A DNA stretch of 64,000 nt, taken from assembly GCA_016748015.1 (NCBI GenBank), contig JAAOMT010000790.1, forward strand, positions 13,479 through 77,478. Reading direction: 5' to 3'. This DNA comes from Geosiphon pyriformis uo1 (Eukaryota; Fungi; Glomeromycota). Position numbers and translations under genes: made by a program. Below the pieces are notes generated by a model. The model saw only the letters and a program-made list of their open reading frames with translations. It was not told where the DNA came from and did not search any database. This document shows, piece after piece, positions 7,852 to 43,278 of this stretch (positions are counted from its first letter, which is position 1; each line of letters opens with the position of its first letter).

Positions 7852-8914
7852 TTTTTTTATATTAAAATTAATAAATGTAATTTAACTACTACTTAAAAAC
7901 ATATAATTATACAAAATTCTATATTAAATATAATTTATGCTTTTTTTACATATAATTAGCTATTCAGACCAATTAAAACAGTATTATACATCTAAATTAT
8001 TTACTACAAAAAAGTTTCACAAAAAACCAAACTACATATTGTTTAAACAAAAATATAGACCAAATTACATATAAATATTTAACTTAATGCCAAAATTTTA
8101 AATTATTTTACAAAACTATATGGAAGTTAAATTAATTATAGCCAAAATTACAAATTTATTATATGGTAAAAAACTATGTTTTTTATAATACACTTTCAAT
8201 TTGATTATTATAGCCAAAGTTTAGATTTGTAACTTTTGGTAAAATACTAAATTAAATTAATATTAACAATCTATTATTTGACTTATTTCCCAATAAACTT
8301 GTCATATTAGTTACTCAATTTTTTATCATGAAACTTTTAACTAATAATATATATAAACAATTAAAAAATTCAGCTTTGTAAAAAGAATAAATTACTATAT
8401 AGTTATTAGTACAAACATTCAACAAACTAATTTATTCTCTAATAGTATCTGAAATCAAATTTTTTTTGGCATAATTATCTTGTGTGCATAAAAACATATA
8501 ATCTAAGTTTTTTATCAAACCACACCAAATACACAGCACACTAAAATAATTCAGATCATATAATTTTTTTTTTAACTATAAGCAGTTGGCAGTATAAGAC
8601 TTTTATAAAATATAATCAAAGTATTGCAAAAGCAGAACTTGTGAAGTTAGACTGAATTTAATCATTAAAGTACTATATACTAAAAATCTAATGCATATTT
8701 ACAAGGTTGTAAAAAGATTTGTTTACAATATTATTTATATACTTAAATTCTTAGCTAACAAAATTAATGGTCTCAAAAAGACTTCTAATAAAGTTATGGA
8801 TGTTTTCAAAGATAGATTTGTTTTCTATAACAAAGAAGTAATATAATATTCTAATAGGCAGAGTAGAATTAAATATGATGACTACATCAACAAAAAAATT
8901 AGCATGTTTATTAT
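7852..8914 (-). mobile_element. Decayed 3' portion of a LINE (end of an RNase H-like region, Cys/His zinc-binding motif, C-terminus, 3' UTR)
   Basis: Minus strand reads NKHANFFVD (GNExAD-like), then KKLYDLNYFSVLCIWCGLIKNLDYMFLC (CxxC...HxxxC-like, H decayed to Y), and ends at TTA 7984-7986. Its 3' UTR matches the plus-strand relic. Confidence 0.6.
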
Positions 8915-9735
8915 TGTTACTCATAAAAATATAGGAAATATTATAGCATGATTATTAGCCAATCAGAAGTAGGTATAGTAAATGTGGAATTCCAGAATTT
9001 CTCTCAGGAATTGCAGGATTTCAAGAATTTCAGAATTCTCCAACAAAGAATCGCAGGATTCCAGAATTCCAAGATTCCTGTTATGAAGAATTGAGGAATT
9101 GAGGAATCTCAATTATGTATATATAGCAGCAGGACTAGAAGCTAAAAAGACAGATCTCTTAGTTTAGATTTAATCTAAGCAACTTTCCAAATTACAATCA
9201 TCTAATAAATAACTATTTGTTATCTCAAACTCATTTCCATTATCAACACTTCATGTTAATAGTAATTGATACTTAATCACACTAGAACAATAGCTCTTGA
9301 TCATGGCTATTGACAGAATACTAACTTGTAAATCACCTTGGCTTATTTTTTTTTTTCTTTATTTTATTTTTTTTTCTTTATTTTTTTGCTTTGATTTTAT
9401 TGTTGTTTACTAACTCTATTGAGGATTAACGTGTGGAACACTGACGTCAGGATAAACGTAACTGGTAAAAGACCCAGAAATAAGGGTAGAACACTCAATT
9501 GAGGATAGCTTACCAGGAAGAATACCGGCCATCAAGCTAAGAAAAAAATTGACGAAACTGTGGTTTCGGGAAGCTATGGAAAAAACTATCACCATTGAAT
9601 CTCTGTTCATTATACAAAGAACTCAACCAAACCCTTCAGATACCAAACCTTTAGATCATTGACAACGAGAATAGCTTTGAGCACCAAGTTACAGGTTCAT
9701 ATTTAATTCAACACCAGAAATTGTCACTTGTAACA
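8915..9735 (+). repeat. 5' LTR of element A
   Basis: TGTTAC...TGTAACA termini; aligns with 27987-28865; TATA-like gtatatatag near 9118. Confidence 0.95.
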
Positions 9736-9754
9736 TTTGGTGCTCCTTGTGAGG
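9736..9754 (+). promoter_or_regulatory. Primer binding site of element A
   Basis: TT-TGGTGCTCCTTGTGAGG directly after the LTR, complementary to a tRNA 3' end (CCUCACAAGGAGCACCA). The tRNA identity was not determined. Confidence 0.85.
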
Positions 9755-9797
9755 TATAATATTACAAAGAATTAGCACCAACAAACACCATCCAAAA

Positions 9798-12700
9798 GTG
9801 GCAGAATCAGAAAACATAGGAGCAAACTATTTAGGATTCATGAAATCCTTATTTCAACACTATTGTCAACACTTGGGATTAAACTACAATCATATATTCA
9901 CCGAATCAGTCTTTAATTTCTACGTCAATGAAAAGATTTTCTCTTTGTTAGAAACACTAGTGAATACTAAATCAGCCAGAGAAACTTTCTACAAAGAATT
10001 AATTCAAAATACCAATCTGCCAACAAATCACAATTTTGCCTCCATCATTACTGAGATCAACAAAAAAATTGAACATCACATCCAACAAAAATATCCAATT
10101 ACTTATGCCAGTAAAGGCAAATAAAAACTATAAACACCAGTAGTAATACCCAAAAGGATACAACCACCTACTTGGAAGAAAACAAGAGTTGAATCACCAA
10201 CTGCTCTATCCTATTACTACACACTGGAAAGCACCATCAATATAACATCAGCAAGCACATCCACATCAAACGCGATATCAACATTTGGACAATTCCTATT
10301 CCAAAGTAAACAAAGAAAAACAGATTTACTAGGACCATACGGTGAATATTTTGAAGGATTTAAGTTGCGATTACCAATACTATCAGGAATTCGATCACTG
10401 CTGTCTCAACCAGACTTTGGAACCACTATCCCATGGAAACTATCTGAAGAAGAAGAGGAAGAAGAATCAGAAGATCAAGAATTTACTTATCAAAACCTGA
10501 TCCTTAAAAACCCAGAATTTGGAATCCCAAACGTTCAAACTCAGCAAGAAAATCCGGAAATCGAAACTCCGAATATTCAAGCACTGCAAAATCAAAAACC
10601 CGAAGTAATTAATCAACACTTACTTCCAGTTATTGTCATTGATCAACCACCAGTTGAACCAATTGGTCAGCCCATCCAAATACCAAACCAACAAAATCAA
10701 CAACCACCCTCAGTATCATCTCAACAACAACAACAACTTCTATTACAGCAACAACAACAAATGGCATACACACCAATTGCAAAGCTTGACAAATTCACCA
10801 GCAAAGAAGATGATGCACAAGTGTGGCTAAACAATGTAGAAAAAACCATTACAGCCAACGAATGGAATGACACCAGAGCCATGCAAGTCATACTTTATTT
10901 TCTCAAGGATATAGCAGATTCATGGTATCAAAGCCTGGTCAACAAACCCCAAGATTTCAACACCTTTAAATTAGAATTTTTGAGATACTTTAGCAATAAC
11001 AACAGCATCAACAGATTAGCCAACACTTTCACTACAATTAAACAAGGAGAAACTGAAGCAGTTATCACATATCTGGGATGCTTCCATAGAAATCTGCAAC
11101 AAATCCAAGCAATTAATGCTAATTATTTCACAGCGCCACAAATTTTCAATCAATTCATCCATGGCCTGTGCAGTAGCATCTTGCAACATGTATGCCCATT
11201 GCATCCAGCCACTCTCCAGAATGCAGTCACACATGCCAGAAATTTCAAATTTGCCAAATTAGAAGCCAATCACACCCACACCATAAACCTAGTGATGAAT
11301 AGATCATCTGAATTGGATTCTAAATTGAAACAATTCAGTGATTCAATTAATCAGAAGTTAGAGGGATACTTAGCTGACAATTGTGCAATTTATCAACCAC
11401 CACAATAATGCAACAATCCAGGAAATGTGAATCATTTCCAAAATCAGTCGCATTCATCATCATCATCAACAGCACCTAATCAGTCATGGCAGCCAGAAAC
11501 ACATGTTTGCCACAACTGTGGTAAACAAAGACATATAAGAGCAGACTGCAGATTTTATAGCAACAATTCACGATTGGAAAATCAATATCAAAACCTCAAT
11601 CACAGATTTCAAACTCCAAATTGTTACTTAAATCAAGATCAAACTACTTACCTGCCAATGACACAGCCATTAATCTATCAACTGTCAGTATATTAACCTC
11701 AAATTTATCAACTGCAGCCACCAGTAATTTATCAGCCACAACCCCAAATAATTTATCAACTCCAATCAATTCAGACACTGCCCCAAAATTCAGTTAATAT
11801 GACATCAGGCCACTCCAGACCTAGAATTACACAAAACTGGAGATCGGCAATAGTTGTCTACCAACTGATCTCCAGTTCTTCTAACTCACCATCAGGATTA
11901 CATTCACAGAATTCGGGTACTGGTACCACTCAAAACCCAAATTCCCAGAACTATTTAAGTCTCCTGATTACTCCAGAAGACGCCACCAATACCAATTCAG
12001 GATCCAACCAACAATTAACACTCACCAGCAATATTCTGCCAGCCACCATCACAGAAGACGAGTCACTCACAGCCATATTCCCATTTGAAATTGAGGAACC
12101 ATCAGGAGTTCTTTTGTTTAACAGAGCCGCTATTGAGGAAAAACCCATCACGGTGATGTACACCAATGCCAAAATTGATGGCCATTCTATCAAGCTCATT
12201 CTTGATAGTGGGTTAGCAAGCAGCATTATCACATGACAACTCATGGACCAATTAGGTTGCCAAGTTAATCGTGCTGCCAGCACCAGAATCATAACAGCTA
12301 ATGGAGCAACCAAAACTCTCATTGGCAAGATTGATGATCTACCCATTGAAATCAATGGCATCACTGTACTAATCAAGGTATTAGTAATGGAAACAACCCA
12401 GTACCAAGCTCATTGGCAACAACTGGTTGTCCAAAACCAACACAATGCTTGACTGGAACACACAAAAACTCCAACTTAGCCAAAACAGCCAATACATGCA
12501 AGTACCAGCCATGTGTGGCCATTTCAAACTTAACAATGTCATGTTATCAATGCTGCTCATCGATTTTGAAGAGGAAAAACCAAAGCCTACTTGGGAGGCA
12601 TACCAAGTATTGTGGGCCGACGTCGAGCACAACAAGCTACCGCCAATTCTAGACTGAGAAAAAAAGAACAATATAAAGGGAAAAGGAACAGAAACAGAAG

Positions 12701-15700
12701 AACATACCTGTGAAACCACTATTGACGCCTGGGATAATGATGACAAAAGTGAAGCAATGCCAACCAGCTGAGAAGAAAAAGGGAAAGGAAAAGAGAAAGA
12801 AGAAAACTTATCTGGAAAAGCCGACGAAGCCACAGAAAAAATAACCAGTGACTGGGAAAGAGAATACTTACATAAGCCAGTGAAGGAGCCACCTTACATT
12901 CTCTTAAAATGTTAGAACTGCAAGAAAAAACTCTCTTCCATAGGAGCATGGATTGCACCAGACAAAAACTACTGGACACAAATCCACTAATACTGCAAAC
13001 CATGCCATAGAAAATGCTATGATTACCCAAAACAACAAGGCAAGTGGGACAACGAACCATGTCTTGCTTGCGGTAAACAGTTACTCGACAAAGGAATATA
13101 GAACAATATTCCTGGTCGAAGAGGAATGTGTGACACTTTGTGCCAATACACAATCCTCATCAGTGATTGGGTAAGTTGCAGCACACCAATAACAGCCGTC
13201 TGGCACCGAGCAATCTCTCGCTTAGAAGGTTATCCACATGACAAAGATGAAATCTGGCAAATGGCCAATGCCAAAGTAGAGGGCACTTTGTCCAGTGAAA
13301 TTCTGGAGATCAAGAACAACCCTCCAGAACCAACAGACATTGTTTTGGTTCTCAACCTGGATGCCTTTCTCAACTTAGAAAACAGCCCAGAAGAATTTCA
13401 TGAACACTATCAGAACTTAGCACCCACCAGAAAAGAGCAGGAACAAAGATTGAAAGAAATAAACACTTGACTATGTGACTATTGTTTGATTCCATGTGAC
13501 TTTCAATATTGTAATAAGTGTGACCTCATTTACAATCCACCACCACGCATAATCTACATGATCTCCGAAGAGAAAGAACCAATTAGCAGCTGTACATTGG
13601 AATTGAAATTGGAATCGATTTTCAATTCCAATTCAAACTCCGACAAGAACAATGATGAAAACACCGGTTCCAGCTCCATTCAAAATGGCATTAACAATGA
13701 CAACAATTCCAACTCAGATTTAAACTCTGATTTAAACTACGAACAATATATTGCACTCTCTGATCTCACTAAAGAACAGAAACTAAAATAGTTCAGTAAT
13801 AATAATGAGGGTATTATGCCAGAATGTGCACATGATACTAATGCTGGGTTCGATCTAAGATATCTAGAAAAAAATGCCATCAAATTGGAACCACATTCAT
13901 GCACCTGCATTGATCTGAAAATAGTGCTGGAAATTCCAGCAACAACAATGGTTTAATTAGCATTTAGGAGTAGTTTAGCAAAAAGAGGAATTAATATAAG
14001 AGGAGGAATAATTGATGTGGGATATGTAGAAAATATCATCATTATAATACAAAATGACTCAGAAAAGGCCTATATAATAGAGCCCAATAAAAAGATAGCA
14101 CAGGCAATATTTTTACCTCTGATTAGAGTAGCTCAGTTGGTATCAGTGGGAAAGAGAGAGGAATTAGGGATAACAGCAAGAGGAATACAGGGATTTGGGT
14201 CAATGGGTAGAATAGATGTACCAGTTAATATGGCGGAAGAAGAAATTGTTGGCCAAGGAGAAATTATCTCAACCAGTCAAGCTATTTCTATTCCACCATA
14301 TAGCCAGTACATGTTAGCAATAGAAAGGAAGGAAAAAAAGCAAGAACAGATTTTTGAAGCTGAAGCAAACCTTTGTGAATCAGAAAAGATTGGACTAAGC
14401 AATCTTCACATACCAGCTAAAAGCTATAGCTGCATAAAAATTCTCATCTACAACAACATTGGCAATGTCATCAACATACCAAAAAGAACCACCATCGGAT
14501 ATTTAACCACAGAAATAGAAGACCAACCATCAAACTCCATTCCAGATTTTCCACAGCTTTGTGGATATGTTGATATAACATCACAAATGATATATAAACA
14601 AAGCAAATGTTATTTGCTCCAATCAGAACAATTGGAACAAATGAATATGAGAAACTTGGATCCACTCCAAAGTATGCAACTTAAGATGTTGCTCAACAAT
14701 TTCAATGACATCTTTGCCAACAAAAATGAGTTTGGCCAAACTGATATTATCCAGCATCAGATCAAGACTAGAGATGCAATGCCAATTAAACAAAGAGAAT
14801 ACAGAATACCACCAGCTAGCCACGAGATTATCTGGCAAGAAATAAACTGAATGCTTGACAATGGGCTAATTCAGCCATCAATGAGCCCATGGTCATTACC
14901 AGTAGTACTCATTCATAAAAAGAATAGAAAAATCTGCTTTTGTGTGGATTATAGAAAACTCAATGGAGTAACTCGTGGAGATAGCTACCTCATTCCATGG
15001 ATCCAAGAATTATTCAATGCTTTTGGTGGAAACAAATAGTTTTCAATATTAGATCTGGACAGTGGTTACTGGCAAGTAGCCATGGATCCAGCTGACAAAG
15101 AAAAGACAGCATTCACCACCAGAGAAAGGAATTTTGAATTTGAAGTAATGTCATTTGACTTAACCAACGCACCAGCCACTTTCCAAAGGCTAATAGAAAT
15201 TGTTTATATGGGCTTATTGTGGAAATCAGTAGTTGTATACTTAGATAACACCAATGTATTCTCAAAAACATTTGATAATCATCTTCATAATCTTCAACAA
15301 GTGTTTGAAAGACTAAGAAGAACAGGATTAAAGTTAAATGCAACAAAGTGTTTTTCAGCAAAACAGAACTAAAATTTTTAGGACACATAGTCAGCAAAGA
15401 TGGCATCAAAACGGATCCAGAAAAAATAGAGATAGTAAAGAACTTTTCAGTGCCAACAAATATAACAGAACTGAAATCATTCTTGGAATTTGCCAGCTAC
15501 TATCAACATTTTATCAAGAACTTTTCTAAGATAGTGCAGCCACTCAACCAACTGCAAACCAAGAATACAAAATATGAATGGACAGAAAGTCAACAAGAAG
15601 CTTTTGATATTCTGAGAAGAAAGCTCATTTAAGCTCTAGTACTAATCTATCCAGATCACAGCAAACTATTCATCATCACCACTGATGCATCTGGCCAAGC

Positions 15701-15834
15701 ATTGGAAGCAGTACTATCTCAGAGAGGACCAGATGACAGAGAATATCCAGTAGCATATGCCAGCAGAGATTTAACACCAGCCGAAAAGAACTATGGAACA
15801 CTGGAACAAGAACACTTAGCAATATACTGGGCAG
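9798..15834 (+). pseudogene. Element A gag-pol, 5' part: Gag (capsid, CCHC knuckle), aspartic protease, Cys-rich domain, dUTPase, RT, start of RNase H
   Basis: Knuckle CHNCGKQRHIRADC; protease ILDSG; RT SPWSLPVVL, CFCVDYRKLN, LDLDSGYWQ, YLDNT; RH TTDASGQALEAVLSQ...YPVAYASR. Many stops and a few frameshifts. Confidence 0.93.
13810..14210 (+). pseudogene. dUTPase domain of element A
   Basis: All five trimeric dUTPase motifs in order: AGFDL, RSSLA, GIIDVGY, IAQAIF, RGIQGFGSMG; one internal stop. Confidence 0.93.
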
Positions 15835-16847
15835 TGTTACCAATAGAATTTTAGCTATTAATTAGCATAAAATTACCCTTATAATTCCTATAATTCATTA
15901 GTATATTAATATTATTTCAAATTATTATTTATTATTTAATCAATTATCACATATCACGATTCAAGTAAAATAATCTAATTAGTATAACAGAAAGTAAGAT
16001 GATCAAATTACACAATACTCTGAACTTTGTAACATTCAAAAATTTGCTGAAATTTACAGAAATTCGCCGAAATTTATAAGAAATTTGCCGAAATTTACAG
16101 AAATTCGCTGAAATTATGAATAGTTCACCCAAATTAATCAATAGTTCAGTGAAATAACTTGTAGTTCATCAAAATGTATCTTTAGTTTGCTGGAATTTGG
16201 GCAAAGAAAAAAAAGTGCAAGTTCATAAACTAGTATTACAACAAGTTGTATAAAAGAAGAGCTTTTCTCTTCTAGAAAATGTATCTTACTTTAGATTTAT
16301 TACTTAGAACCATTTCTACACACATAAAAAGAAATAAATACCAAATAATTTGAAAAACCAAATTCTTTAATTATTGCTCTTGGAAAATCCCCAAAAACCA
16401 ACTAACATTTCGAAATTGATTAGCTACCAATTTCAGTAAACTGTTAGTGACTTCAGGTCTGGATAGAAAACGTTTCTCTTGATAAAATTCTATTTCTTTT
16501 ACATTTCTTTTATTTTCTTTTATTTTTCTTACTATAATCATTAGGGTAGCCTACAGACAAGATTCCTGTAGAAGAGTTGACTTTTACAGCAAAGTAATTA
16601 CACATTTTTAGTAAGCTTCCAGATGAGCAATTCTTGGGAAAGAGTTGACATTTACTACAATGTAACTACACAAAGCAATTGGCAAGGAATTGGCCATTCC
16701 ACTTATAAGCCCAGCAGTTCAAATTATAGAAGATAATTTGAAGATAAATTCAGTTATTGGAGGTTCAACTACTTCCTGAAAACGTGAATTCACAGCAAAT
16801 CAACATTACCAACATTTAAGAAAAGAGACCAAAAACCTCCAGTAACA
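15835..16847 (+). repeat. 5' LTR of element B
   Basis: TGTTAC...GTAACA; matches 24687-25626; followed by PBS TTTGGTGCTCTCCCACGG. Confidence 0.96.
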
Positions 16848-16892
16848 TTTGGTGCTCTCCCACGGAAATAACACAGCAACAACAAATTCAAA

Positions 16893-19800
16893 ATGGCGAC
16901 CACACCAGACACAGCAACTCTAGAGTATTACCAGTCAATATACACTTACTGCAAGCAAAGATTCAACATTCCAGACAGAATTGAAATTGTAAAGAAATCA
17001 GTATACCAATATATTGAAAACCACATCAACAATTATCTTTTTGGAAACTACAACATTTCAGAAGTTAGAAGCAACCTCTACAATAATTTAGTGCATCATT
17101 CACATTTGGGAACAGAAGACCTGAACAGTGAAACATTTGCTACCTATTTCCAAGAACTTAATTTTAATATTATTAAGTATTGTGAAGAAAAATACCCAGT
17201 ACAGTCTAAATACTCTTTTGACTTTGAATCAGAGACAGAAACAAGCAATAAAGGCAAACAAAGATTGAAGCAATACTCAAGAACTACTCCAAACACTCCA
17301 ACACTACAAAAGACAACTGCCAAACACTTGTAAACACCTAAACAAGGAACCAGTGTCAAATTACCACTTTCTATTACACTATTTCCAATTTCACTTGTTC
17401 AACCACAAACACCAAGTTCATCATTTAGCCGTTTTTCCAGACCAAAAGATTTTCAGTCACCTAGAAATCCTACTCAACAGCAGGAACCAATATCAACAAG
17501 TGCCAATATCATTAATTACTTACAGGAAAACGAAAGTAATCACTCAGAAAGCTTGGAAAGTAAAAAAACTGAATCAGAACCAGAAGAAATTCCAGAAAAC
17601 AAAAAAAAAATGGCAACTGCTTACATTGCAAAAATCCCAGAATTCACTGGTGAAGACAATGATACCAGTCCCCAAGAATGGCTTGACAAAGTTCAAAAAG
17701 CAGGAGATGCAAATAGTTGGATTGCAGCAAGAATGCTCAAAGCAATTCCTTACTTTCTCCAAGGAACAGCAGGAGAATGGTTTGAAAATTTAGAAGAACC
17801 ATTTGAAAACTGGCAAGCATTCAAAGATGCTTTTTTACAACAATTTACTGACAACAATACCTCTATCACTCTCAGAAACCGCTTTTGCAATATCAAACAA
17901 GAAACATCTGAATCTGTTATGACCTATCTTGGAAGATTTAACAAACTTCTCAGACGAATCCGACAATTAGAAACCAATGACTACTATTCTGATGCTCAAA
18001 TTCTGGATCAGTTTATAGCAGGGTTAAAAGACAAACTGATTAAGAAAGTCTGTCCACATGCTCCAGCAGACTTAGCAACTGCTATTAGACATGCAAAGAG
18101 CTATGAAATGGCAATGGAAGAAGCAAATCACACCAAGCTTGTAAACCTTGCAATTGGAGAAACCAGCTCAGTGGCTGAAAAGAAGATAAATCAACTCACA
18201 AAAAAAGTTGAAAGCTACTTCACAAACCAACAACAACAGCAACAACAACCACAAAGATATCAACCCCCACAACGACGCAACCAAAACAATTTTGGATCAT
18301 TATCTAACAACCAATCTCAAAATTGTTATTATTGTGGAATTCCAAAACACTGGAAACGAGATTGTAGGAAATTACAAAGAGACCAACAAAACAGGAGTAA
18401 TCAACATTACTCTTCACTACAACAATCCTATTACCAATCTCCACTACCAACTTATTATTCACCAAGACCACAAAATCAAAACAGTTACTATCCACCAGCT
18501 CCACAATCAATGCAGCAACAATATTAGCAACCTTTACCAATTCAGCCATATCAGACACCACTCACTCAACAATATCAAGTACCAGCAAGAAGATTGGTTC
18601 AACATAACCAATTCACACCCCAAAATCAATTGCAGAATAACCACAACAGAATCAATCCAAATAACCAGTTGGTTCCCCGAAATTCGGGCCAGCAAAGACC
18701 CAATCACTATCACACTCAACCCAGTTATCTTACAATACCAGAGAAATCGGATTTTCAACAAACTGTACTTTCTGAAGGTGAAATTGCAGCACCAAGATCA
18801 AACTTTTTCAACCACACCATTCCCCCAGCTCAAATTGCCCAAAATGCTAATCTGTCAGATATATTTTCATTTGAATTTGAGGCAAATGAATCACCATTTC
18901 TGCTTAGTAATGCAGCAGTCAATGAACAGAAAGCAATTACTGCCATGTACACAGAAGCTATAGTGGAAGGAAAACCCATTTGCTTAATCTTAAATAGTGG
19001 ATCAGCTGGAAGTATCATCACTTACCAGCTGATGCAACAACTCAAACAAAACATAGACAAACCAGCTCAAACAGTTATTGTTACAGCTAATGGTATGAAG
19101 AAGACTCCAGTAGGAGAAATTGATGATTTCCCTTTTTTAATTGATGGAATTACCATTCCAGTTAAAGTTCTTGTTATGGATGCACCCCAATACCAAGCTC
19201 TAGTCGGAAATGATTGGCTTCTCAAGGCCAATGCAAACCTGAACTGGGAAACTCAAAAACTTAAAATCTCATACCAAGGACAATATACCATAGTACCTGC
19301 AATCTGTGGTACCTTTAACAAATGATCAGAAAAAGCTCCAGTATTTGAATTTGAAGAGGAGAAAGAAATACCACTTACTGAAACCTACATGGCTCTTGGA
19401 TCAACATCCAATTGGGCTGAAGAAACTGAACAAGAGATTTTCGAAGAATCAAGGGGATGGAAGAAAGTTAGATATTCTACACCAAAACCACAGAAACAAC
19501 CACTCTATATTCCACTTAAATGCAAAGATTGCAACAAAAAACTTTCATTAATGGGAGCATGTATTTCTCCAGAAGAGGAATATGAAACTCGTACCTGTTA
19601 CTTTTGCAAAGCATGCCATAGAGAATGATTTGGATTTCCAAAAAGAAGTGGAAAATGAGACAACACACCTTGCCTTACATGTGGAGAAATACTACCAGAA
19701 GAATGCAATTGAATTGATGTAGCAATGAGAGGAGGAGTATGTGATCAAATCTGTCAATATGCTCTATCAATTTCGGAAAAAGTCAAAAGAGGGACACCAT

Positions 19801-22412
19801 TTGATGCAGCATACAACAGTGCTCTCAATAAACTTTACCACTACCCTCATAATACTGAAATAATTTTTGACCTAGCAATGACATTAATCAATGGAGCCAC
19901 TCAAAAAGATGTCCGCCAAATGAAAAAAGCTGAATATATTGAGTACACCATGGAATTAGCTGGATTTGATTATGAAGATAAAGTAGAAACCTACCACCAA
20001 ATTGCAAGCCACACATATCTGACCAAAGAAGCTCAAATTCAACAATTAGAGCAAATGAACATTCAATTGTGTAAAGAATGTGTTATGCCTTGTGATGACC
20101 AATGGTGTTTAGAATGTTATGCTCTTAGCATTCCTTTGCCAGATGAGAATGATGAAAATGAAATCGAATTTGGAGTATCTGAACAAGTAGAAGAACTACC
20201 AACCACTCCCATCTATCTTCTTGAAAAGCAACCACCTCTACAACTTAAATATTTTGACAACCATGGCCAAGGAATCAGACCAGAAAAAGCANNNNNNNNN
20301 NNNNNNNNNNNNNNNNNNNNNNNNNNNNNNNNNNNNNNNNNNNNNNNNNNNNNNNNNNNNNNNNNNNNNNNNNNNNNNNNNNNNNNNNNNNNNNNNNNNN
20401 NNNNNNNNNNNNNNNNNNNNNNNNNNNNNNNNNNNNNNNNNNNNNNNNNNNNNNNNNNNNNNNNNNNNCTTACTCTTAATCAACATTTCGGGTTTACAAT
20501 CAGTAAACAACAGAGAACAATTGGAAAAAAGTGAAAGAGGAACTCAAGGTTTTGGTTCAACTGGACGATTTACAGTTCCAGTAAACATAGCTCTTAATAC
20601 ACAAAATGAATCTCACCAGATTCTTCAACTTCCTCAGCCAATTACCATTTCACCTTTTGGAGAACATTACGAAATTTACACTTGCTCAAAACCCACCACT
20701 ACACAACAAATCTTTGAATCCAATGAACAAATCTGTTTGAAGCATGAAATATTAATTCCAAATGTTTATATTCCCAAAGGAATGAAAAAATTTTGAGTTA
20801 CATTCTACAACCCCAATAATTACCCTATTGTTTTATTAAACAAATTAGAAATTGGAATCATACACAGCAATATCTTTCAAGATGAAAACCCTCAAATTGT
20901 CTTTAATTTCATCGAAATTATAAAGCACACTCTACTCCCAAATCCAAATATTATTCTCACTACTGAAAACTACCACTTGTTAGAAGAAAAACTCTCTCGA
21001 ATCAATATAGATCCCTTAGAACCTCAACAACAAAGACAATTGAAACAATTGATAGCTGAATTTGCAGATATATTTGCAAAAGACAACAATGACTTGGGAA
21101 AAACAGACATTGTTCAACATCAGATCCATACAGGAGATGCTCTACCAAAACGTCAACAAGCTTATTGAGTGCCACCTGCCAGCCACCAAATTATCAGAGA
21201 AGAGGTCCAAAGAATGCTCAATAATGGATTGATTCAACCATCAAGAAGTCCTTGGGCCTTACCAGTAGTTTTGGTTAAAAAAAAAAACGGAAAAATTAGA
21301 TTTGTGTTAATTATAGACAACTGAATAGTGTTACAATTGGAGATGTCTACCCTCTTCCAAGAATTGATGACATGCTAGATGCTCTGGGAAAAGCCAAGTT
21401 CTTTTCAACTTTAGATCTGGAAAGTGAATACTGGCAAGTCGAAATGGACCCAAAAGATAGACCCAAAACAGCATTCACCACTCAAGAAGGAAATTATGAG
21501 TTTAATGTTATGCCTTTTGGACTTTGCAATGCACCAGCAACATTTTAGCGACTCATAGATGTTGTCTATGAAGGGCTCTTGTGGCAATTAGTAGTTGTTT
21601 ATCTTGATGATACTGATGTATACTCACCAAGCTTTGAAGCCCATTTCATTCACCTGCGAGAAGTTTTTCAACGACTATGAAAAGCAGGATTAAAGTTAAA
21701 TATTGAGAAATGTCACTTTGGAAAAACAAGTTTGATCTTTTTTGGACACATAGTTAGTAAAAATGGAATCAAACCAAATCCAGGAACAATCAATGCTGTC
21801 AAAAACTTTCAAACTCCCAGAAATACTACAGAACTAAGAGAATTTGTGGGATTAGTCTCTTACTATTGAAAATTTATAAAAGGATTCTCAGAAATTGCCA
21901 AACCACTAAATTATCTTACTAACAAAAACGTACCATACAAATGGACTGAAGAACAACAAAAAGCTTTTGAAATTCTCAAAACAAAATTGACAACAGCCCC
22001 AGTTTTTGCTTACTCAGATTTCAACAAACGATTCCAATTAGCCACTGATGTCTCACACATAGCATTTGGTGCTATCTTATCACAATTGGATGAAAATGGC
22101 CAAGAACAAGTTATTGCCTATGCCAGCAGAACACTCAAGCCAACAGAACTCAAATATGACTCAACTGAATTAGAAGCTGCTGCAGTTATTTGGGTTTTTA
22201 AACATTTTCAACAATATCTGAAAAATGGAAAAGAATTTGACATAATAACGGACAACATTGGCCTCAAATGGCTTAATAAAAAGAAAAATGAACAAAGTGC
22301 CAAACAGTTTCGATGGAATGACTTTCTAGCAGACTACAGATATATTGTACACCACAAACCAAGAAAACTACATACCAATGTTGATACCCTCTCAAGAATG
22401 AGACAAGATTAA
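16893..22412 (+). pseudogene. Element B gag-pol: Gag, protease, Cys-rich domain, dUTPase (core lies in the N gap), RT, RNase H
   Basis: IPEFTGE...PQEWL capsid; CYYCGIPKHWKRDC knuckle; ILNSG (mutated DSG); RGTQGFGSTG dUTPase motif 5; YLDDT; RH ATDVS...ELEAAAVIW...ITDN...NVDTLSR. Gag and protease are in one frame. Confidence 0.94.
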
Positions 22413-22469
22413 TACCAACAACAATTTCACCACAACTTACTAACTTACCAACAAAATAACCAAACAAGA

Positions 22470-23855
22470 ATGGATCCCAGAAACTACAGCAATCTTAAAA
22501 ATTATTTGGAGATCCTTACCATGCCAGAAAACTGGTCTCCAAGTGAAAAACACCGCTTACAACACCAATCAAAACAATATTTCATACACCAGAACAAAAT
22601 TTATTATAAAAATCACAGAAAACCAAACCAGCCACTCAGATTAGTACAAGAGAATAAAAAAGAAACAATTTTATACAACATGCACACAGATCTGTCTTCA
22701 GCACACTTGGGAAAAGAAGAAACAATTCAAAGAACCCTTGAACATTATTTTTGGCTTCACATGCAAAAAAACATTCGACAATATGTAGAATCTTGTGATA
22801 ATTGCCAAAAAAGAGGAGGAACTCACCCCACAGAACCTTTAAATCCAATCAAAATTGGACAACCTTTTGACAGAGTTGGAATTGATTTAGTCAGACCATT
22901 ATCTATCACAACCCAAGGAAATTGTTATATTGCAGTTGCAGTGGATTATTTTACCAAATGGCCTGAAACTAGAGCCATCCAAAGAGCAGATGCAAAATCA
23001 GTAGCAAAATTCATCTATGAAGACATTATCTGTAGACATGGATGTCCAATTGAACTCTTATTTGATCAAGGAACACATTTTGTGAACAACTTGATACAAG
23101 AAATTTGTAAACGGTTCAATGTCAAAAGACCTCTATCATCATCTTATCACCCTTAAACAAATGGACTTATAGAACATTTCAACAGAACATTGTGTGAATC
23201 TTTAGCCAAAGTCTCAACAGACTTTGAACAGGAATGAGATATCTTTATTCCATCAGTGTTACTAGCATACAGAACACTAAAACAAGATACTACAAAACAC
23301 ACACCATTTAATCTTACTTATGAAAGGACAGCAACATTACCAATTAATTTCACAGTGGAAACATACCCAGTACAACCAATCAATGAAGAAAACTTTCAAG
23401 AGACACTCCAAAGAAGAGCTTACACTCTTCTTAGTACACTGGAAGGAAAAAAAAGAATAGCAGCAGCTCATATTGAACATTCCCAAGCTTAACAAAAAGA
23501 AAGACATGACAACAAATTACCATCTATTACCAACGAATTTAAAGTTAGAAATAAAGTTCTCTTACACAGAACTAAGGCTGAAAAACAATGGAGTGGGAAA
23601 TTTGAAAACAAATAGGATGGACCATTTTATATTCACGAAATTCTAGGCAATAGATCATATAAGTTAAGACTTAATGACAAAATATTAGCAAAAGTTGCAC
23701 ATGGAGACAGACTGAAACACTATTATTTCAGAAACAATCCTGAACCATTAATTCCACAAATTGGTACACATTCTCCTTTAATTAATTCTGAAGATATTCC
23801 CCGAAATTTAGAACCAATAATTATAATAGAACAACAACCAAACTTGAACACTTAA
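22470..23855 (+). pseudogene. Element B integrase ORF (HHCC, DDE core, GPY/F, no chromodomain)
   Basis: MH...AHLG...CDNC; RVGIDLV; VDYFTKW; FDQGTHF; GPFYI; several in-frame stops. Confidence 0.93.
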
Positions 23856-23998
23856 ATTTTACAATAATTCTCTACTAAAAACACAAAGACAAAAATAGTA
23901 AATAATTACAAAACACCCAAACCCAAAAACAAATAAAAACCCCATATCCAAAAAATAATTTTCTTTATTTTTTCTTTTCATAATTAGTCAATTTTATC

Positions 23999-24706
23999 AT
24001 GATTATTCCCCAAAATATTCAACAAATATCCCAAAAATTAATGTTAGCCTTGAAAACACTCCCTGACTTATCTATAACGATTAATGGAAGTCAAATTAAA
24101 TACATTCAGAAAGAAACCACAGCCCCAGTAGCAAATCATTTACAGAACTATCACCCCTATAGAAGAGAAACAAGAAGTCACTCTGAAAATAAATTACCAA
24201 GACTTTTGAAGCAGGCACTAGAAGAAAATCTGCTAATTGCCCCTATTGACATTCCACCAAATGCTACAATACAACAAAAACTACTACTACTTCTTAATGA
24301 ACAGAACAATGAACACACCCCTATCTATAAATACTTTCAAATTGGAAAAACACTTTATGAACAAAAACTGGAACTTGAAGCAACAAATCTCACTCCTGAA
24401 GTTATACAAAAACAAATCTACAATGAATTCAAAACAGCAGCTGGACCAACAAACACTTGCTACAAACTTAGAGCAGCTTTTAGACTCTATGATTTGTTTA
24501 ATACTTGTGAAAATATTCTACAAAATCCAATACTGCAATCAATGAAAGTCCAATACATTGGCAAACTCACAGAACTAAAATTTCAACAATTTTCAGACCA
24601 GATTACTTCAATCATTTTAGATCACTATCTCAATATTACAGATAGTGCTTGGACTTCGATGGAGCTCAGTCTTGAGGAGGAGATTATGTTACCAGTAGAA
24701 TTTTAG
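23999..24706 (+). CDS. Element B ORF3, 235 aa, unknown function, in the env position
   Basis: Open ORF between integrase and PPT, ending inside the 3' LTR; aligns by eye with element A ORF3; no obvious signal peptide or TM segment. Confidence 0.75.
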   Translation: MIIPQNIQQISQKLMLALKTLPDLSITINGSQIKYIQKETTAPVANHLQNYHPYRRETRSHSENKLPRLLKQALEENLLIAPIDIPPNATIQQKLLLLLNEQNNEHTPIYKYFQIGKTLYEQKLELEATNLTPEVIQKQIYNEFKTAAGPTNTCYKLRAAFRLYDLFNTCENILQNPILQSMKVQYIGKLTELKFQQFSDQITSIILDHYLNITDSAWTSMELSLEEEIMLPVEF

Positions 24707-25626
24707 CTATTAATTAGCATAAAATTACCCTTATAATTCCTATAATTCATTAGTATATTAATATTATTTNNNNNNNNNNNNNNNNNNNNNNNNNNNNNNN
24801 NNNNNNNNNNNNNNNNNNNNNNNNNNNNNNNNNNNNNNNNNNNNNNNNNNNNNNNNNNNNNNNNNNNNNNNNNNNNNNNNNNNNNNNNNAAATTATGAAT
24901 AGTTCACCCAAATTAATCAATAGTTCAGTGAAATAACTTGTAGTTCATCAAAATGTATCTTTAGTTTGCTGGAATTTGGGCAAAGAAAAAAAAGTGCAAG
25001 TTCATAAACTAGTACTACAACAAGTTGTATAAAAGAAGAGCTTTTCTCTTCTGGAAAATGTATCTTACTTTAGATTTATTACTTAAAACCATTTCTACAC
25101 ACATAAAAAGAAATAAATACCAAATAATTTGAAAAACCAAATTCTTTAATTATTGCTCTTGGAAAATCCCCAAAAACCAACTAACATTTCGAAATTGATT
25201 AGCTACCAATTTCAGTAAACTGTTAGTGACTCCAGGCCTGAATAGAAAACGTTTCTCTTGATAAAATTCTATTTCTTTTACATTTCTTTTATTTTCTTTT
25301 ATTTTTCTTACTATAATCATTAGGGTAGCCTACAGACAAGATTCCTGTAGAAGGGTTGACTTTTACAGCAAAGTAATTACACATTTTTAGTAAGCTTCCA
25401 GATGAGCAATTCTTGGGAAAGAGTTGACATTTATTACAATGTAACTACACAAAGCAATTGGCAAGGAATTGGCCATTTCACTTATAAGCCCAGCAGTTCA
25501 AATTATAGAAGATAATTTGAAGATAAATTCAGTTATTGGAGGTTCAACTACTTCCTGAAAACGTGAATTCACAGCAAATCAACATTACCAACATTTAAGA
25601 AAAGAGACCAAAAACCTCTGGTAACA
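24687..25626 (+). repeat. 3' LTR of element B (contains an assembly gap)
   Basis: Preceded by PPT GAGGAGGAGA; matches the 5' LTR. Confidence 0.96.
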
Positions 25627-25630
25627 GCAG

Positions 25631-25836
25631 TCATGAAATGGAAAGAATACTTGAGCCAGAAGTTTGAAGTATACACAGATCACAAAAGATTAACATTACT
25701 TCAAAAACAAGAATTTGGAGATAGAAGACAGTTAAGATAGAAAATGGCACTTGCACCATATAATTATATTATACATTATAAAAAGGGAAAAAACAATGAA
25801 AATGCTGACGGTTTGTCATGAATGAGACAAATCTAG
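25631..25836 (+). pseudogene. Remainder of the element A RNase H
   Basis: MKWKEYLSQKFEVYTDHK...IHYKKGKNNENADGLS*MRQI*. Confidence 0.9.
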
Positions 25837-25917
25837 GAACATTTCAACCCAAAATATAACAAAACCAGAACAATACCAACAAAACCAGAACAATACCAAC
25901 AAAAAATATAACAAAAG

Positions 25918-27289
25918 ATGAACATACAAAAATATTAACAACTGCAATATTATATAAACACTTAACAGTTCAAGGAAAATTTATCTCAAACAAAATGAAA
26001 GAATATTAAACAACAATTAAAATATTTTATCACTCACCAAAATATACTTTATCGGAAAAATAGAAGAACCAACCAGAGTAATTACAGAGCTAGAAAAAGA
26101 GACAATATTATTCAACATGCACTCAAATCCAACAGCAGGACACTTTTACAAAGAAGCAACCATGGAAAGAACCAAAAAAAGATACTATTGGCCATCAATG
26201 TATCCAGACATCATCTAATATGTTCAAAATTGTAATGCTTGTCAGCAAAGAGAAGGAATGAAACCCAGTAAACCATTAAGACCAATCAAAGTAGGACAAC
26301 CATTTGACCGTATTGGAATTAATCTAGTTGGACCATTAATAATTACCAGAGGAGGAAACAGGTACATAGCAGTAGCCATGGACTATTTCACTAAATGGCC
26401 AGAGGCGAAAGCAATTCAAAGAGCAGATGCAGAATCCATTGCCAAATTCGTTCATCAAGATTTAATTTGTCAACACAGATGTCTAAAAGAATTATTATCA
26501 GACCAAGAAACTCATTTTGTGAACAAAACATTAACAGAATTGAGCCAAAGATTCGGAATTAAGAGACCACTATTATCACTATACCATCCACAAACCAACA
26601 AATTAGTCAAAAGATTCAACAGAACATTGTGTGAAGCAATAGCTAAGCTCAGCCAAGAAAACCAAAACAATTGGGACATGTTGATACCATTAGTATTATT
26701 TGCTTATCGAACAATGAAGCAAGACACTACACAAGCAACACTATTTGAATTAGTATATGGTAGAACAGCAACATTACCAGTGGAGATAGAGGTCAACACA
26801 TATCCAACTGAACCAATAACAGAAGAGAATTTCCAAGAAACATTGTTAAGAAGAACATATGACTTAATAGAAACATTGAAAAACAAACAAAAAAGAGCAG
26901 CTAATAACATACAAAAATCACAAGAAAAACAGAAAGAAAGACATGATAATCAACTACCAAACAAACCAGTTGAATTCAAGATTAGAGACAAAGTACTCTT
27001 ATATTGTACCAAAGCAGAAAAACAATGGAGTGGAAAATTTGACCTCAAATGGGATAGACCATTTCACATAGAAAAAATTCTAGGAAATGGAGCTTACAAA
27101 TTAAGACTGGACAACAAAATCTTAACCAAAGCAGCATATGGAGATCAACTGAAACTATACCACAACACTATACTACCATCTACTAGTAATATTCCACAAT
27201 TAGAAGTACAAAGAATACTAGTTTAACCAGATCAGATTCCACAAGATTTGGAACCAATCATTATTATTGACAACAACACGTCAAATTGA
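25918..27289 (+). pseudogene. Element A integrase ORF
   Basis: MHSNPTAGHF...CNACQ; RIGINLVGP; MDYFTKWPEA; SDQETHF; clearly similar to the B integrase. Confidence 0.93.
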
Positions 27290-27313
27290 TTCATCAAAAG
27301 AATATATAAAGAC

Positions 27314-27973
27314 ATGGTAGACATGACAGGAAATATCAGAAAAATAGAAATTACAGACAACATTCACTCACTAGCACAACAACTCTTTCAATTGATCCAA
27401 CACCAGGAAATGAAGATTACAATCAATCAACAAACCATTCAATATCAAGATACTAGAAAGACATTGCAACCCAAAACACAGAAGAAAACTGAAAATACTG
27501 TGGACAAAATCATTATGAAAGTAAAATTAGCAATAAGAGAGTTGACAAAAGAGTCACTATATCAAAAGTTGACTAAAGAAACTTGGAATTGATAGATACA
27601 ACAATTTCCATGAAACTATTGTTATTTTTACTTGGAACAACACGTAAATATCCAAAATCTATATATTAATAAAACAAAGCAATTATTTGACAAAAGAATA
27701 CTACAACAATTAGAACATTTTGTGGGAAAAAACAACTTATTCACACAGGCCCGAGCTATATACCAAATACACACAGCATTTCAGAATAGACCAGAAATAT
27801 TACTCAACAAAGCAATAGATATGGTTACCAGTAATCAATTAGGAAAGATTATCAATGCTCAATTTAAAGAATTACAGACCCAAATAACACAAATAATTCT
27901 CGAAAACAAAATCCAGGAAATACTTCAAGAGGGGGAATTAAACAAGTTGGATTTCAATAGAGCTCAATATTAA
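27314..27973 (+). pseudogene. Element A ORF3 (homologue of B ORF3), disrupted
   Basis: Shared blocks: ITDNIHSLAQQL/IPQNIQQISQKL, ITINQQTIQY/ITINGSQIKY, ARAIYQIHTAF/LRAAFRLYDLF, LGKIINAQFKELQTQITQIIL/IGKLTELKFQQFSDQITSIIL. Confidence 0.75.
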
Positions 27974-27986
27974 AAAGAGGGAATAA

Positions 27987-28865
27987 TGTTACTCATAGAA
28001 ATATAAGAAATATATTAGCATGATTATTAGCCAATCAGAAATAGGCATAGTAAATGTGAAATTCCAGGATTCCTCTCAGGAATTGCAGAATTCCAAGAAT
28101 TTCAGGATTCCCCGACAAAGAATCACAGAATTCCAGAATTCCAGAATTCCTCTCAAAAGAATCGCAGGATTCTAGGAATTCAAGGATTCCTGTTGTGAAG
28201 AATCGAGGAATTGAGGAATCTCAATTATGTATATATAGCAGCAGAACTAGAAGCTAAAAAGACAGATCTCTTAGTTTAGATTTAATCTAAGCAACTCTCC
28301 AAATTACAATCATCTAATAAATAACTATTTGTTATTTCAAACTCATTTCCACTATCAACACTTCATGTTGATAGTAATTGATACTTAACTACACTGGAAC
28401 AATAGTTCTTGATCATGGCTATTGATGGAATACTAACTTGCAAATTGCCTTGGCTTATTTTTTTTTTTTTTTTATTTTATTTTATTTTATTTATTTTCTT
28501 GCTTTGATTTTATTGTTGTTTACTAACTCTATTAAGGATTAATGCATGGGGCACTGATGTCAGAATAAACGTGACTGGTAAAAGACCCAGAAATAAGGGT
28601 AGAACACTTGATTGAGAATAGCTTACCAGGAGGAATATCAGCCATCAAGCTAAGAAAGAAATTGACGAAACTGCAGTTTTGGAAAGCTATGAAAAAAAAA
28701 TTATTACCATTGAATCTCTGTTCATTATACAAAGAACTCAACCAAACCCTTCAGATACAAAACCTTCAGATACCAAACCTTCAGATCATCGACAACAAGA
28801 ATAGCTTTGAACACCAAGTTATAGGTTCATATTTAATTCAACACCAGAAATTGTTACCTGTAACA
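27987..28865 (+). repeat. 3' LTR of element A
   Basis: Preceded by PPT AAAAAGAGGGAA; aligns with 8915-9735 with extra repeat units. Confidence 0.95.
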
Positions 28866-28894
28866 CTGGAGCTCAATCTCTTTGGAAAGGATAA

Positions 28895-29537
28895 TGTTAC
28901 AGTTGAAACCCATAATTTTTATTAATTATTACATGTATTAGCCATTGATGTCATATAATTAGCCACTCTATTTTTAGATAGTGATCATTAACCTGATCAA
29001 TGACCTGACTATTGACCACTTTTATTAGCTATATAAGTAATGAGTCTCTTAGCTGTAGAAAATCATCTCTCAGACAAGAATCAAATAAATAAAAATAACA
29101 ACTTTCATCTCAATCACTCTCTTATTATTAATTTTCTTTTCCCTACCTTTAAGTATCTGAACATCTTAGGATAAAAGATTACTTGTTAGCCTTTTCCTGT
29201 TTGAATAATTGTAGTATTTGAAGACTATTTGTATAAACATGACTGAAGAGCACAATTTGATACCTGATATTGAATTCTAAGAGTTCCGATGTGAAGGCAT
29301 AGAATTAATACCAGCAGTGATCAATTGTTGACAGTACAAACTATTTCTCTACCTTCAGATTCCCAGTTACCTTTGAAAAAAATAGCGACTGAGATATTTT
29401 ATGAGACTGATCTCGCACATTGAATCCATACTCATTCAATTTGCTCTTTAAAGTTGAATTCTTCTTTGATTATTTCCATCACCCTACAATCCTGTTCTCC
29501 CTTGCTATCCATTAGCTTGTTACTCCAACTTGTAACA
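28895..29537 (+). mobile_element. Third LTR (element C) with a 29-bp PPT-bearing stub and no partner LTR
   Basis: TGTTACAGTTG...CAACTTGTAACA termini and TATATAAG near 29031. It is preceded by ggagctcaatctctttggaaaggataa, which resembles the pre-3'LTR ends of A and B. Confidence 0.75.
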
Positions 29538-32500
29538 GTATTATTAACAAATGCCTCAGCTGCAAAAAAAAAAGACATCCCACTATTACTTTTAACTCTG
29601 CCCAATTTAGCCACAAACTTAGTATTAATCCAATACTTACATAAATGCTCATGTCTTTTAATTTTACACAATAGTGGATCATAAAAAATCCTCCAAAGAA
29701 GGGGTGAAAAAACCTCACTCTAATTCAAACCATTATGTACTCTATAACCATTTGAGAGGCCAAAATTGGTCATCACTCTGTTAATTTTATCCTTGTAAAT
29801 ATTGCCAAAAAACTTGATAAACCTGTCACACATCTTGATATGCCATAGGCTAGCCTTTAAGTGGTACCAACTAACAGAATCATATGCCTTATACATATCC
29901 TACAAAACCAACCAAAGTTTTTTATTTTTCTTAAGAGTGTTTTCAACTACTGACCCAACAGCAAACACCAGAACCTGAGTAGAAGTACCCTTTAACACTG
30001 AAAAATTGTCACTGTGGAGAACACCAAACTTGCTACAAGCAAAAAAAATTCTATCAAAAAAGATCTTTCTGGCTGTCTCAATTAAAGCAATAGGGTAGAT
30101 ATTTGTAAGAATTTCATCCCAATCATAAGGTTTAAGGATCATCAAAATTCATGCTCTCTTCCATAAGGCAGACACTATACCAACAAAGAGACATTCATTT
30201 AACAGCACCAAAAGACACTCTATTACACTCTCGTCATCATGCTTCTAAAGTTTGTTCAGAATGCCAGACAAGCTAATGGTTTTGCCATCAGGCAGACCAC
30301 CAACAACTACAAACAACTCACTCATGTTAATTATATCCATTACACCAGAAAAAACATTATCTCTAACATAGTTCAATAGTACATACTGATGAGCCCAGAG
30401 ATCAGACAGCACAGAAAACACCACACATTTCCTTGTTCAACCTTTCATGATCCTGTTAATATTTAATCTTATTTCATCTGAATTCAATACCAGCTCATTA
30501 TTAACCACCAAGTGATCCAACACCACCTTTCAAAAGAGTCTATCTAAAACACTTCTGATCATACTACCCTTGTCCGAACAAAACTTTTTCATGTGTTTCT
30601 CAATAGCTGCTCTGATAGAAGCATTTTGCACCAATTTTGATTCATATATTTTGGACTTTCTGTACCCTTTTCTGACAATTGACAAATATTTAAGAATGTT
30701 TATCATTTTTTGATCAGCATGAACCATGTTTCTCAACACAAGAGCCTTATCAGTATCCAAAGTTGACCATTTTTCAACAAGGCAATCGAACCTGAAAGTG
30801 TTATCAGATTCCAACTTCTTGACAATTTTGACAACCAACAACTCCAATCCCAGAAATTTAGAAAACTGCTTATTTTTTGAACACTGAAAATCACTGAACC
30901 AAAGCCTAAAAAAGATCTCATCTGCAAAACCCACCAATGCTCCTTCCAGTAGCAACCACATAGCATCTAAATCATGATCTGCAGCTGTGACAAGAAACTT
31001 AATCTTTATTATCAGAATTCTGGCAGAGGAGCAATCTCTAAAATAAGACCACCCAGTACTGTCTGCATCTTTGATTTTGAACTTCCAACAATCCTTGTAA
31101 ACTTGTTTGTGCAAACCATTTAACTGAACATCCAGGAGTCCACTCAAACTGACCAATACCACCACAGCATTGTGGTCTATATCAAAGAAATCAGAAACAG
31201 AACCAACCCAATGTTTTACAACAGTAGAAAATAGACTCTTACTAACAAAAATGTAATCAATAGTCCTTTCAGCACTTCTTGAATTGCACCATATAGGAGT
31301 CTTAATCAAATAATGACTATTAAACAAATTAACCAGATCCAAACTCGAGCAGAACTTAAAACTTGCACTTCTTCCAGACCTGCACTTATTAAAATCTCCA
31401 CCCAAAACCATGAAAGTACTGGTGTTAACAGTCTTAGCAATAATAGAGTTAACCTCAAGTGCTTGTTCAAAATGGATGCCAGCAGAAACAGCAACATACA
31501 AACCAAGAACAGACACCAAGAGCTTGCTCTTGAACAAAAGCCACACCAAAATAATCTAACCAGGAACCACTTCAACCTTAGAAACATGATGAGCCAAAAA
31601 ATTGTTCATAACAACAGCAATACCAGCACCAAGACACCCAACATCCAAACCAGAAGTAAAAATCTGAACTTCATCATATTTATCTTTGATCCAAAGCCTA
31701 GAAGAAGACCTCAACTTTGTCTTAGTAATGAAAGAAACCGTATTCCTAGAACTTATATACTAGCAAATAACATCCACTTGCTTTGCAGGAACATTGATAC
31801 TCCGAACGTTGCATATAGCAAATTTTCAAACCAAACCACTTATTGGGATAAAGAAGATAATAGGGAGCCAGAACCAGAACACAAATAATCCAATCTGATT
31901 AACACTGAACTAATTGAAGCTTTCAAAGACATCATCTTTAACTCTAATTTACCCACCTTGGTGGTTAGAATCTTGGAGCTACTTAAACTGAAACCAAAAG
32001 CATCATCAACAACAGCAGAAAAAGAGGGAGCAGAAGGCTCTGATACACCATCCAAAACCATATCCAAGTTAACTTCTGAAGCCAAAGATGTAAAAACAGC
32101 CAAAGAAAGCTCATGAAAAACAGGTGTCAAAGGCACTAGTTCCACAAAGCTCAACTTTTTCACAATATCAAAAATCTAATCGGTTAAAAGCTTCAAAGAC
32201 CATTCCAAAGATGCCAAGTGATTGACCAAATTAGAGACACCATAGGAATTGGTACTGTTAGAAGAGGACCAAGCATCAATAGAAAATTTAGCACCAGGAG
32301 ATGGATCAGTACTTAAAGAAGATGAAGAACCCAAAAGAAAAGAGGAACCACCTGCAACTTAAGCCCAAGTTTTGCTACCAAAAAAAACCAGACAAATGAT
32401 AGATGTCTGCTTTTTTTTATAAATGTTGGCCAGGCAAATCCAATTTTGATCAGTCACCACCCACTTTTCATGAATTCCAGAATTCTCACCAACTGAACAC

Positions 32501-43067: not shown

Positions 43068-43278
43068 TCTTTAGGGTTTGAGTGTTGCGAATTTTTGAAG
43101 AAAATAATATAATGGCTAAGCTCGAGTTTTATCTTGCAGATCATACCTAATAGAAGCGCTCATTGTCTCACAAGATAATAGAATGTTAATCTTGGACTCG
43201 ATTTTAAATTTATAGGTAGTACTTTATCACTTCCCAACCATTCAGAAACCTCAACTTGAGGTTTTCTACATTTTAGAA

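Follow-up and report, generated by a model that had tools for sequence, protein, structure and literature searches.

The window, a stretch of 64,000 nucleotides from the fungus Geosiphon pyriformis uo1 (assembly GCA_016748015.1, contig JAAOMT010000790.1, positions 13,479 to 77,478 of the forward strand), carries two long terminal repeat (LTR) retroelements of Gypsy type: element A (8915–28865) and element B (15835–25626), the latter nested inside the RNase H (RH) of the former. In both, pol ends at RH, and the integrase (IN) and a third open reading frame (ORF3) follow as separate downstream genes, with IN most likely produced by reinitiation of translation—a reading given a probability of about 0.5. 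The separate integrase and ORF3 are what is noteworthy in these elements, not the retrovirus-like nature that had been proposed from the sequence alone (hereafter, the sequence-only reading).

An inherited stop codon behind RNase H

The stop codon that closes pol (TAA at 22410–22412 in B, TAG at 25834–25836 in A) is inherited and not a product of decay: in B it is without variant at a level of at least 3% among the copies, and it stands at the same place in A, in B, and in 19 of 19 related loci. For B, 1002 contig pieces of related copies were placed on positions 22330–22560; they come from run X1, which may be the source of the window itself and serves here solely as a view of other copies. 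This segment holds 40 variant sites at a level of at least 3%, all of them listed, and none lies within the TAA. By contrast, at the decay stop at 23490, C accounts for 90% of the depth in other copies (40 of 606 variant sites listed). The sequence-only reading had described a stop followed by a separate IN with a characteristic end, and this holds: the motif LEPIII(I)D/E lies at 27248 in A and 23808 in B, and both INs end approximately 10 residues past it.

The related DNA loci were fetched by a pattern for the end of RH that contains no stop codon, since protein ends could be contig ends. In all 19 of these metagenome loci—which are mutually related, and hence not 19 independent events, and were selected with a motif derived from relatives—a stop follows two to three codons past RH. 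An IN ATG lies 74–100 nucleotides downstream of the stop in 17 of the 19; among these 17, L010 is frameshifted, and L015 is cut by a contig end, its IN being recognized from the N-terminus alone. The 17 spacers comprise four in frame, four at +1, and nine at +2. None of them contains an ATG (shuffles, 11), and the IN start has the context ATGG in every case. The Asn codon before the Val at the end of RH is AAC in 16 of 17 rows versus 23 of 45 elsewhere, the rows being related; this choice concerns an Asn codon able to create an upstream ATG.

Because the stop is inherited and IN restarts in any frame over an ATG-free spacer, the integrase is very probably translated unfused, as its own protein. 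Ribosomes would terminate behind RH, move on along the brief spacer, which offers no ATG, and begin anew at the IN ATG; binding to RNA or Gag-Pol might then bring the free integrase into the particle. Termination–reinitiation as the specific route is held tentatively, at slightly below an even chance.

Relatives with a split pol

A search for longer reverse transcriptase (RT)–RH proteins gave 6015 matches, of which 120 were listed; 103 of these were kept (aligned over at least 340 residues) and 17 dropped. Among the 103 kept relatives, 48 end no more than 20 residues past RH, 14 carry a tail other than IN, and 41 continue into IN. Nine of the 14 group with the 48 short-ended ones, giving 57 split-type relatives, and several of the tails are rich in Cys and His. 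In the Gag-Pol relatives P0206, P0207, P0216, P0228, P0235, P0236, P0239, and P0240, a tail of 75–395 residues that is not IN follows RH; several of these tails bear a Cys/His cluster, and the three scanned have no credible Pfam match. A scan of IMG/VR with IN returned no relative.

An unrooted tree was built from 57 chosen rows (34 split, 23 fused), which are search hits only, without named reference clades. In it, A and B pair as sisters (99/98), apart from a branch (87/99) that holds 22 of the 23 fused-IN rows. The distribution of the split rows needs two changes, and a single split clade is not rejected (approximately unbiased (AU) test, p 0.48). Judged by these sequences, a lineage with a non-standard Gypsy layout exists, and the split pol is its lineage-wide feature. 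The proposal of an undescribed lineage thus stands as far as the layout goes, for which no description was found in the literature, although subscription journals, Repbase Reports, GyDB, and supplements could hold one; the deoxyuridine triphosphatase (dUTPase) and the Cys-rich region named with it are not defining.

Translation of the integrase

The best-surviving rival likewise has a separate integrase but derives it from a subgenomic RNA—transcribed from an internal promoter in the RH end and spacer, or spliced from the 5′ leader—and is a possibility to be taken seriously, if a doubtful one. The pentamer ACGGA occurs in 13 of the 17 relative spacers (shuffle mean 0.4), and AACGG clusters between −200 and +100 relative to the IN ATG in the relatives, with 40 sense occurrences versus none on the other strand. 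AACGG resembles a Myb-type site, and the cluster could mark a promoter or splice signal. In addition, the Val at the end of RH is encoded by GTA in 15 of 17 cases versus 57 of 193 elsewhere, and the ATG-free spacers are depleted in AG (19 versus 51 expected). However, the motif is absent from the spacers of both A and B, B carries ATGs 72 and 92 nucleotides upstream of its IN ATG, and AG occurs within the last 40 nucleotides in only one of 15 tabulated spacers. No in-frame splice acceptor recurs consistently among the loci, and no consensus structure was found in the relative spacers.

That the integrase is still made within a Pol fusion, via stop-codon readthrough or a stop-removing intron, is unlikely. 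An intron inside pol is present in plant Ogre elements. The spacers of A and B are multiples of three and that of B is open, which makes readthrough possible for both families, and two Rhizophagus clarus gene models (P0194 and P0197), the two IN-bearing rows inside the split group, join RH to IN. Both models, however, skip the last RH motif, the spacer shifts the frame in 13 of the 17 related loci, and three of the four readable in-frame spacers contain further stops. All three stop codons are used at the end of RH and share no common 3′ context. An in-frame intron finds no support: the first AG after the spacer is in phase with the conserved GT in six of 18 cases and lies at scattered positions.

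Several points weigh against termination–reinitiation behind a split pol. Eukaryotic ribosomes usually reinitiate poorly once they have translated a long ORF. The AACGG cluster, the in-frame spacers of A and B, and the relatedness of the 19 loci have to be counted here, and only 16% of the bootstrap trees unite the split rows in a single clade. The G of the B IN ATG is A in 39% of the depth, a value that falls inside the range of neighboring C>T/G>A sites. In the loci L002 and L016, the 465 and 268 nucleotides that remain contain no IN. A single story for all families is further opposed by the ATGs ahead of the B integrase and by the spacers of A and B, which are C/A-rich, in frame, and motif-free. 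In L002 and L016, the stop is followed by T-rich sequence, and the RH end is of the type of R. clarus P0160; elements of this type may be without IN or carry it elsewhere.

Organization of the nested elements

Self-comparison reveals two LTR pairs, 8915–9735/27987–28865 for A and 15835–16847/24687–25626 for B. A and B had been presented as two elements, and both are real, but nested. The same order of parts had been claimed for both and is found in both: gag, protease (PR), Cys-rich region, dUTPase, RT, RH, stop, IN, and ORF3. A 4-bp target duplication, GCAG, flanks B, and the reading frame of A resumes past the insertion. The features are as follows, all on the plus strand.

8915–9735 (+): 5′ LTR of A (TGTTAC...GTAACA), aligned to the 3′ LTR
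9738–9755 (+): primer-binding site (PBS) of A, from the sequence
9753–12410 (+): gag and PR of A, in the order N-terminal domain, linker, capsid (CA, from 10761), CCHC (11508), then PR motif DSG (12204); five internal stops
12880–13560 (+): Cys-rich region of A, five CxxC pairs, no Pfam match
13792–14214 (+): dUTPase of A (PF00692, E 4e-16)
14215–14650 (+): post-dUTPase region of A, approximately 140 residues, common to B, no Pfam match
14700–15834 (+): RT and first part of RH of A, frameshift near 15360, broken by B
15835–16847 (+): 5′ LTR of B, GCAG target duplication just before
16850–16867 (+): PBS of B, from the sequence
16893–20291 (+): gag, PR, Cys-rich region, and dUTPase start of B in a single frame; six internal stops; CA at 17610, CCHC at 18324, PR at 18990, Cys-rich region at 19518–20120
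20250–21000 (+): dUTPase of B (core in N gap 20292–20468) and post-dUTPase region
21050–22412 (+): RT (YLDD at 21600) and RH of B, ending in the fixed TAA at 22410–22412
22413–22469 (+): RH–IN spacer of B, 57 nucleotides, ATG-free, C/A-rich, in frame, open
22470–23855 (+): IN of B, separate ATG-started ORF with H2C2, rve core, and SH3/GPF-type tail, without chromodomain; four internal stops
23999–24706 (+): ORF3 of B, 235 residues, intact; overlaps the polypurine tract (PPT) and the first 20 nucleotides of the 3′ LTR
24687–25626 (+): 3′ LTR of B, N gap 24770–24889, GCAG after
25627–25836 (+): end of RH of A, TAG at 25834–25836
25837–25917 (+): RH–IN spacer of A, 81 nucleotides, ATG-free, in frame, one TAA
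25918–27289 (+): IN of A, a decayed ORF of its own with a frameshift near 26060
27314–27973 (+): ORF3 of A, approximately 219 residues, three internal stops
27987–28865 (+): 3′ LTR of A, purine tract before, no target duplication

The LTRs of A differ from each other at 67 of 821 aligned sites and those of B at 11 of 737 compared sites. Between A and B, no common LTR match is longer than approximately 50 nucleotides, as the claim of dissimilar LTR interiors had implied; the PBSs, which had been called different, diverge after position 8 but are identical in the first eight nucleotides. Both copies are dead, with many stops and frameshifts, many of the stops being of the C>T/G>A type, and the observed/expected ratio of CpG amounts to 0.19–0.25 in A and B versus 0.87 in host DNA. 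The ends of A show no target duplication (TTAT versus CTGG), and its right flank (28866–28905) resembles the end of an ORF3, a PPT, and the start of an LTR of a third family; these two features hint that two A copies have recombined here or that the assembly was joined wrongly. Directly upstream of A, positions 6000–8900 form a very AT-rich tract (10–21% GC) with degenerate repeats.

Modules common to both elements

The Pfam scan identifies gag, CCHC, protease, dUTPase (in A only), RT, RH, H2C2, rve, and, weakly, an SH3 tail. A and B share 39% identity in CA, 56% in PR, 60% in RT, and 57% in IN. The less familiar modules align as well: the Gag N-terminal domain with 27% over 73 residues (E 1.5e-4), the Cys-rich region with 35% over 250 residues (E 4e-47; 13 of 16–17 Cys aligned), the post-dUTPase region with 24% (E 2e-8), and ORF3 with 26% over 100 residues (E 2e-7); the linkers do not align. 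On the strength of these identities, the likeness is beyond chance, and the modules have evidently been retained in A and B across a deep split. All the modules listed in the sequence-only reading are found, with corrections: the Cys-rich region spans approximately 250 residues instead of 220, the post-dUTPase region had been overlooked, and the "extra" N-terminal domain of Gag, while common to both elements, stands ahead of CA in the usual position of matrix. Pfam yields no credible match for the Cys-rich region, the Gag N-terminal domains, or the post-dUTPase region, and neither A nor B is matched by the Gag N-termini of 10 relatives (best E 0.047). Matches to Spuma_A9PTase before RT are read as an RT-proximal linker, being below or near the cut-off and present in relatives too.

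The dUTPase, also claimed for both elements, scores above the cut-off in A (59 bits to PF00692, trimeric dUTPase, cut-off 22), whereas in B the core lies in the N gap and only the flanks are readable. Exclusion of uracil from cDNA is an established role of dUTPase, and the enzyme would likely serve it here; the Cys-rich region is predicted to bind zinc, likewise as a likely function. The distribution of the extra modules does not support the idea that the lineage is defined by all of them. Five of the 57 split-type relatives have a dUTPase between PR and RT; on the tree, this module requires three changes, and one origin is neither shown nor rejected (AU p 0.20). The Cys-rich region has P0187 as its sole match among the RT relatives outside the families of this genome, plus four proteins from the ORF3 profile search, and thus seems nearly confined to families of the G. 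pyriformis genome. By this distribution, both modules are sub-lineage cargo and not a lineage signature. A different Cys-rich insert occupies the same slot between PR and RT in P0149, P0153, P0160, and P0163; the slot seems to collect zinc-binding cargo.

ORF3

ORF3 is represented by at least 200 protein clusters. The 120 homologs listed comprise 119 under the name of G. pyriformis and that of the window itself. Against 1.84 billion representatives, an ORF3 profile found 36 matches, and the nine looked up comprise seven from G. pyriformis and two from metagenomes. In four of the related loci, an ORF of approximately 140 residues lies between IN and PPT, and in a fifth, it precedes an LTR. It belongs to a family of 70 members, with names from Rhizophagus, Dentiscutata, Cetraspora, Funneliformis, and Gigaspora. 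A first profile comparison with the ORF3 of the window was not significant (E 0.18); hhalign gives E 0.005 at a probability of 7%, and a profile of the window type places eight of the 70 members above all 370 controls and the rest mixed with them. The two families are probably homologous, the link being weak. In L017 (2–394, minus strand), a Cys/His-rich ORF after the integrase replaces the helical ORF3.

The model of P0277, a member of the 140-residue family, features a compact helical domain (predicted local distance difference test (pLDDT) 94); its best Z is 4.8, and Foldseek finds no match at E ≤0.001 in BFVD or PDB. The atlas comparison reaches at most 0.80 for features and a template modeling (TM) score of at most 0.51 for structure. 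The window ORF3 gives a poor model (pLDDT 49.5; best Z 5.0). Among PDB sequences, the ORF3 profile finds only unconvincing matches, and ORF3 has no Pfam family. No result shows a new fold. ORF3 is predicted to be a soluble helical accessory protein and not Env. T-rich tracts lie ahead of ORF3 in four of five loci, and because such tracts precede it in most copies seen, ORF3 would likely be translated from its own subgenomic RNA. A polypyrimidine tract with a TAG that resembles a splice acceptor (23960–23998) stands right before the ORF3 ATG of B.

It is very improbable that these are retrovirus-like infectious elements with ORF3 as an envelope or coat-like protein. ORF3 does occupy the env position, and an atlas match to a closterovirus coat cluster reaches 0.91 (146 of 256 features, with recognition under the threshold); this is a weak lead, the window ORF3 model being poor and the fold searches listing no such coat protein. 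However, ORF3 has no transmembrane stretch, the most hydrophobic window of 19 residues averaging 0.7–1.3 and never more than 1.3 in all five sequences tested, it has no Pfam family, and the RT is closest to Ty3. That the stop and the additional ORFs are decay or chance in two dead, ordinary Gypsy copies is scarcely credible despite their many C>T/G>A stops, given a stop fixed among copies and shared by A, B, and all 19 loci, and given the clusters of ORF3.

Relation to known systems

The elements resemble Ty3/Gypsy elements (Metaviridae, yeast Ty3) in their TG...CA LTRs, PBS, PPT, gag with CCHC, order of PR-RT-RH-IN, and short target duplication (4 bp in B only, none in A). The term "retrovirus-like" is not supported: compared with solved structures, RT-RH scores 260 bits to Ty3 and at most 84 to foamy, gamma, and lentiviral RTs (an entry named "enzymatic polyprotein" scores 187), and ORF3 is without a transmembrane stretch. 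In contrast to Ty3/Gypsy, pol closes behind RH, IN stands as an ATG-started ORF of its own, an ORF3 comes next, and a chromodomain is missing (no chromo family in either IN at E up to 1).

A dUTPase is known in fungal Gypsy elements such as Postia PosPlaTy3-5, Tuber Tmt1, and Phanerochaete elements, with the PR–RT position in PosPlaTy3-5 (PMC2864245 and PMC6431247, accessible portions). These elements are from Dikarya and have one or two ORFs; a separate IN, a Cys-rich region, and ORF3, as in A and B, are unmentioned in the accessible portions of these papers. Of the five int states distinguished in the accessible portion of PMC2774666, none is a separate ORF on the same strand behind RH. Ginger DNA transposons also carry a Gypsy-type integrase as a gene of its own (PMC2836005, in part), but with terminal inverted repeats and without RT, whereas the IN of A and B lies between LTRs and behind RT-RH. 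The layout is not described in the accessible portions of PMC3248453, PMC2836005, PMC10508981, PMC13465315, PMC11075540, 10.1101/2021.03.30.436303, PMC2864245, PMC6431247, PMC2774666, and PMC11952901.

Two viral systems offer a functional analogy alone, no sequence or fold link having been found. Foamy viruses produce Pol separately from Gag and package it by way of the RNA, and in caulimoviruses, a polycistronic RNA is translated by reinitiation with the help of the 3′-terminal gene. In A and B, only IN is split off.

Surroundings of the elements

Decayed frames like those of a non-LTR retrotransposon, endonuclease- and RT-like by eye, lie at 29400–33850 on the minus strand. Host genes recognized by eye span 35645–62000 and include MATH-BTB (35645–36943, −), arginyl-tRNA synthetase-like (41180–43070, −), F-box-like (43216–44241, +), Brix-like (45414–46482, +), large-subunit GTPase-like (49786–50917, −), and GATA zinc-finger factor (55713–57401, +) genes.

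Implications

LTR elements normally settle the dosage and packaging of the integrase by its fusion to Gag-Pol. A lineage that breaks this fusion must translate and package the integrase another way, and the intact-looking relatives in Rhizophagus make the question of a separate integrase directly testable. A bolder picture—a Glomeromycotina-wide clade of three-gene elements in which the free IN is reinitiated and a helical ORF3 of new fold activates downstream translation or loads IN—is speculative and has a low probability. ORF3 itself constitutes an additional uncharacterized, well-folding protein family. Tools built around an uninterrupted PR-RT-RH-IN frame would call such elements broken or invent an intron. 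Since LTR sequence is reported to make up 41.2% of G. pyriformis (PMC11952901, accessible portion), elements of the A/B type likely constitute much of this genome and underlie hundreds of its "hypothetical proteins."

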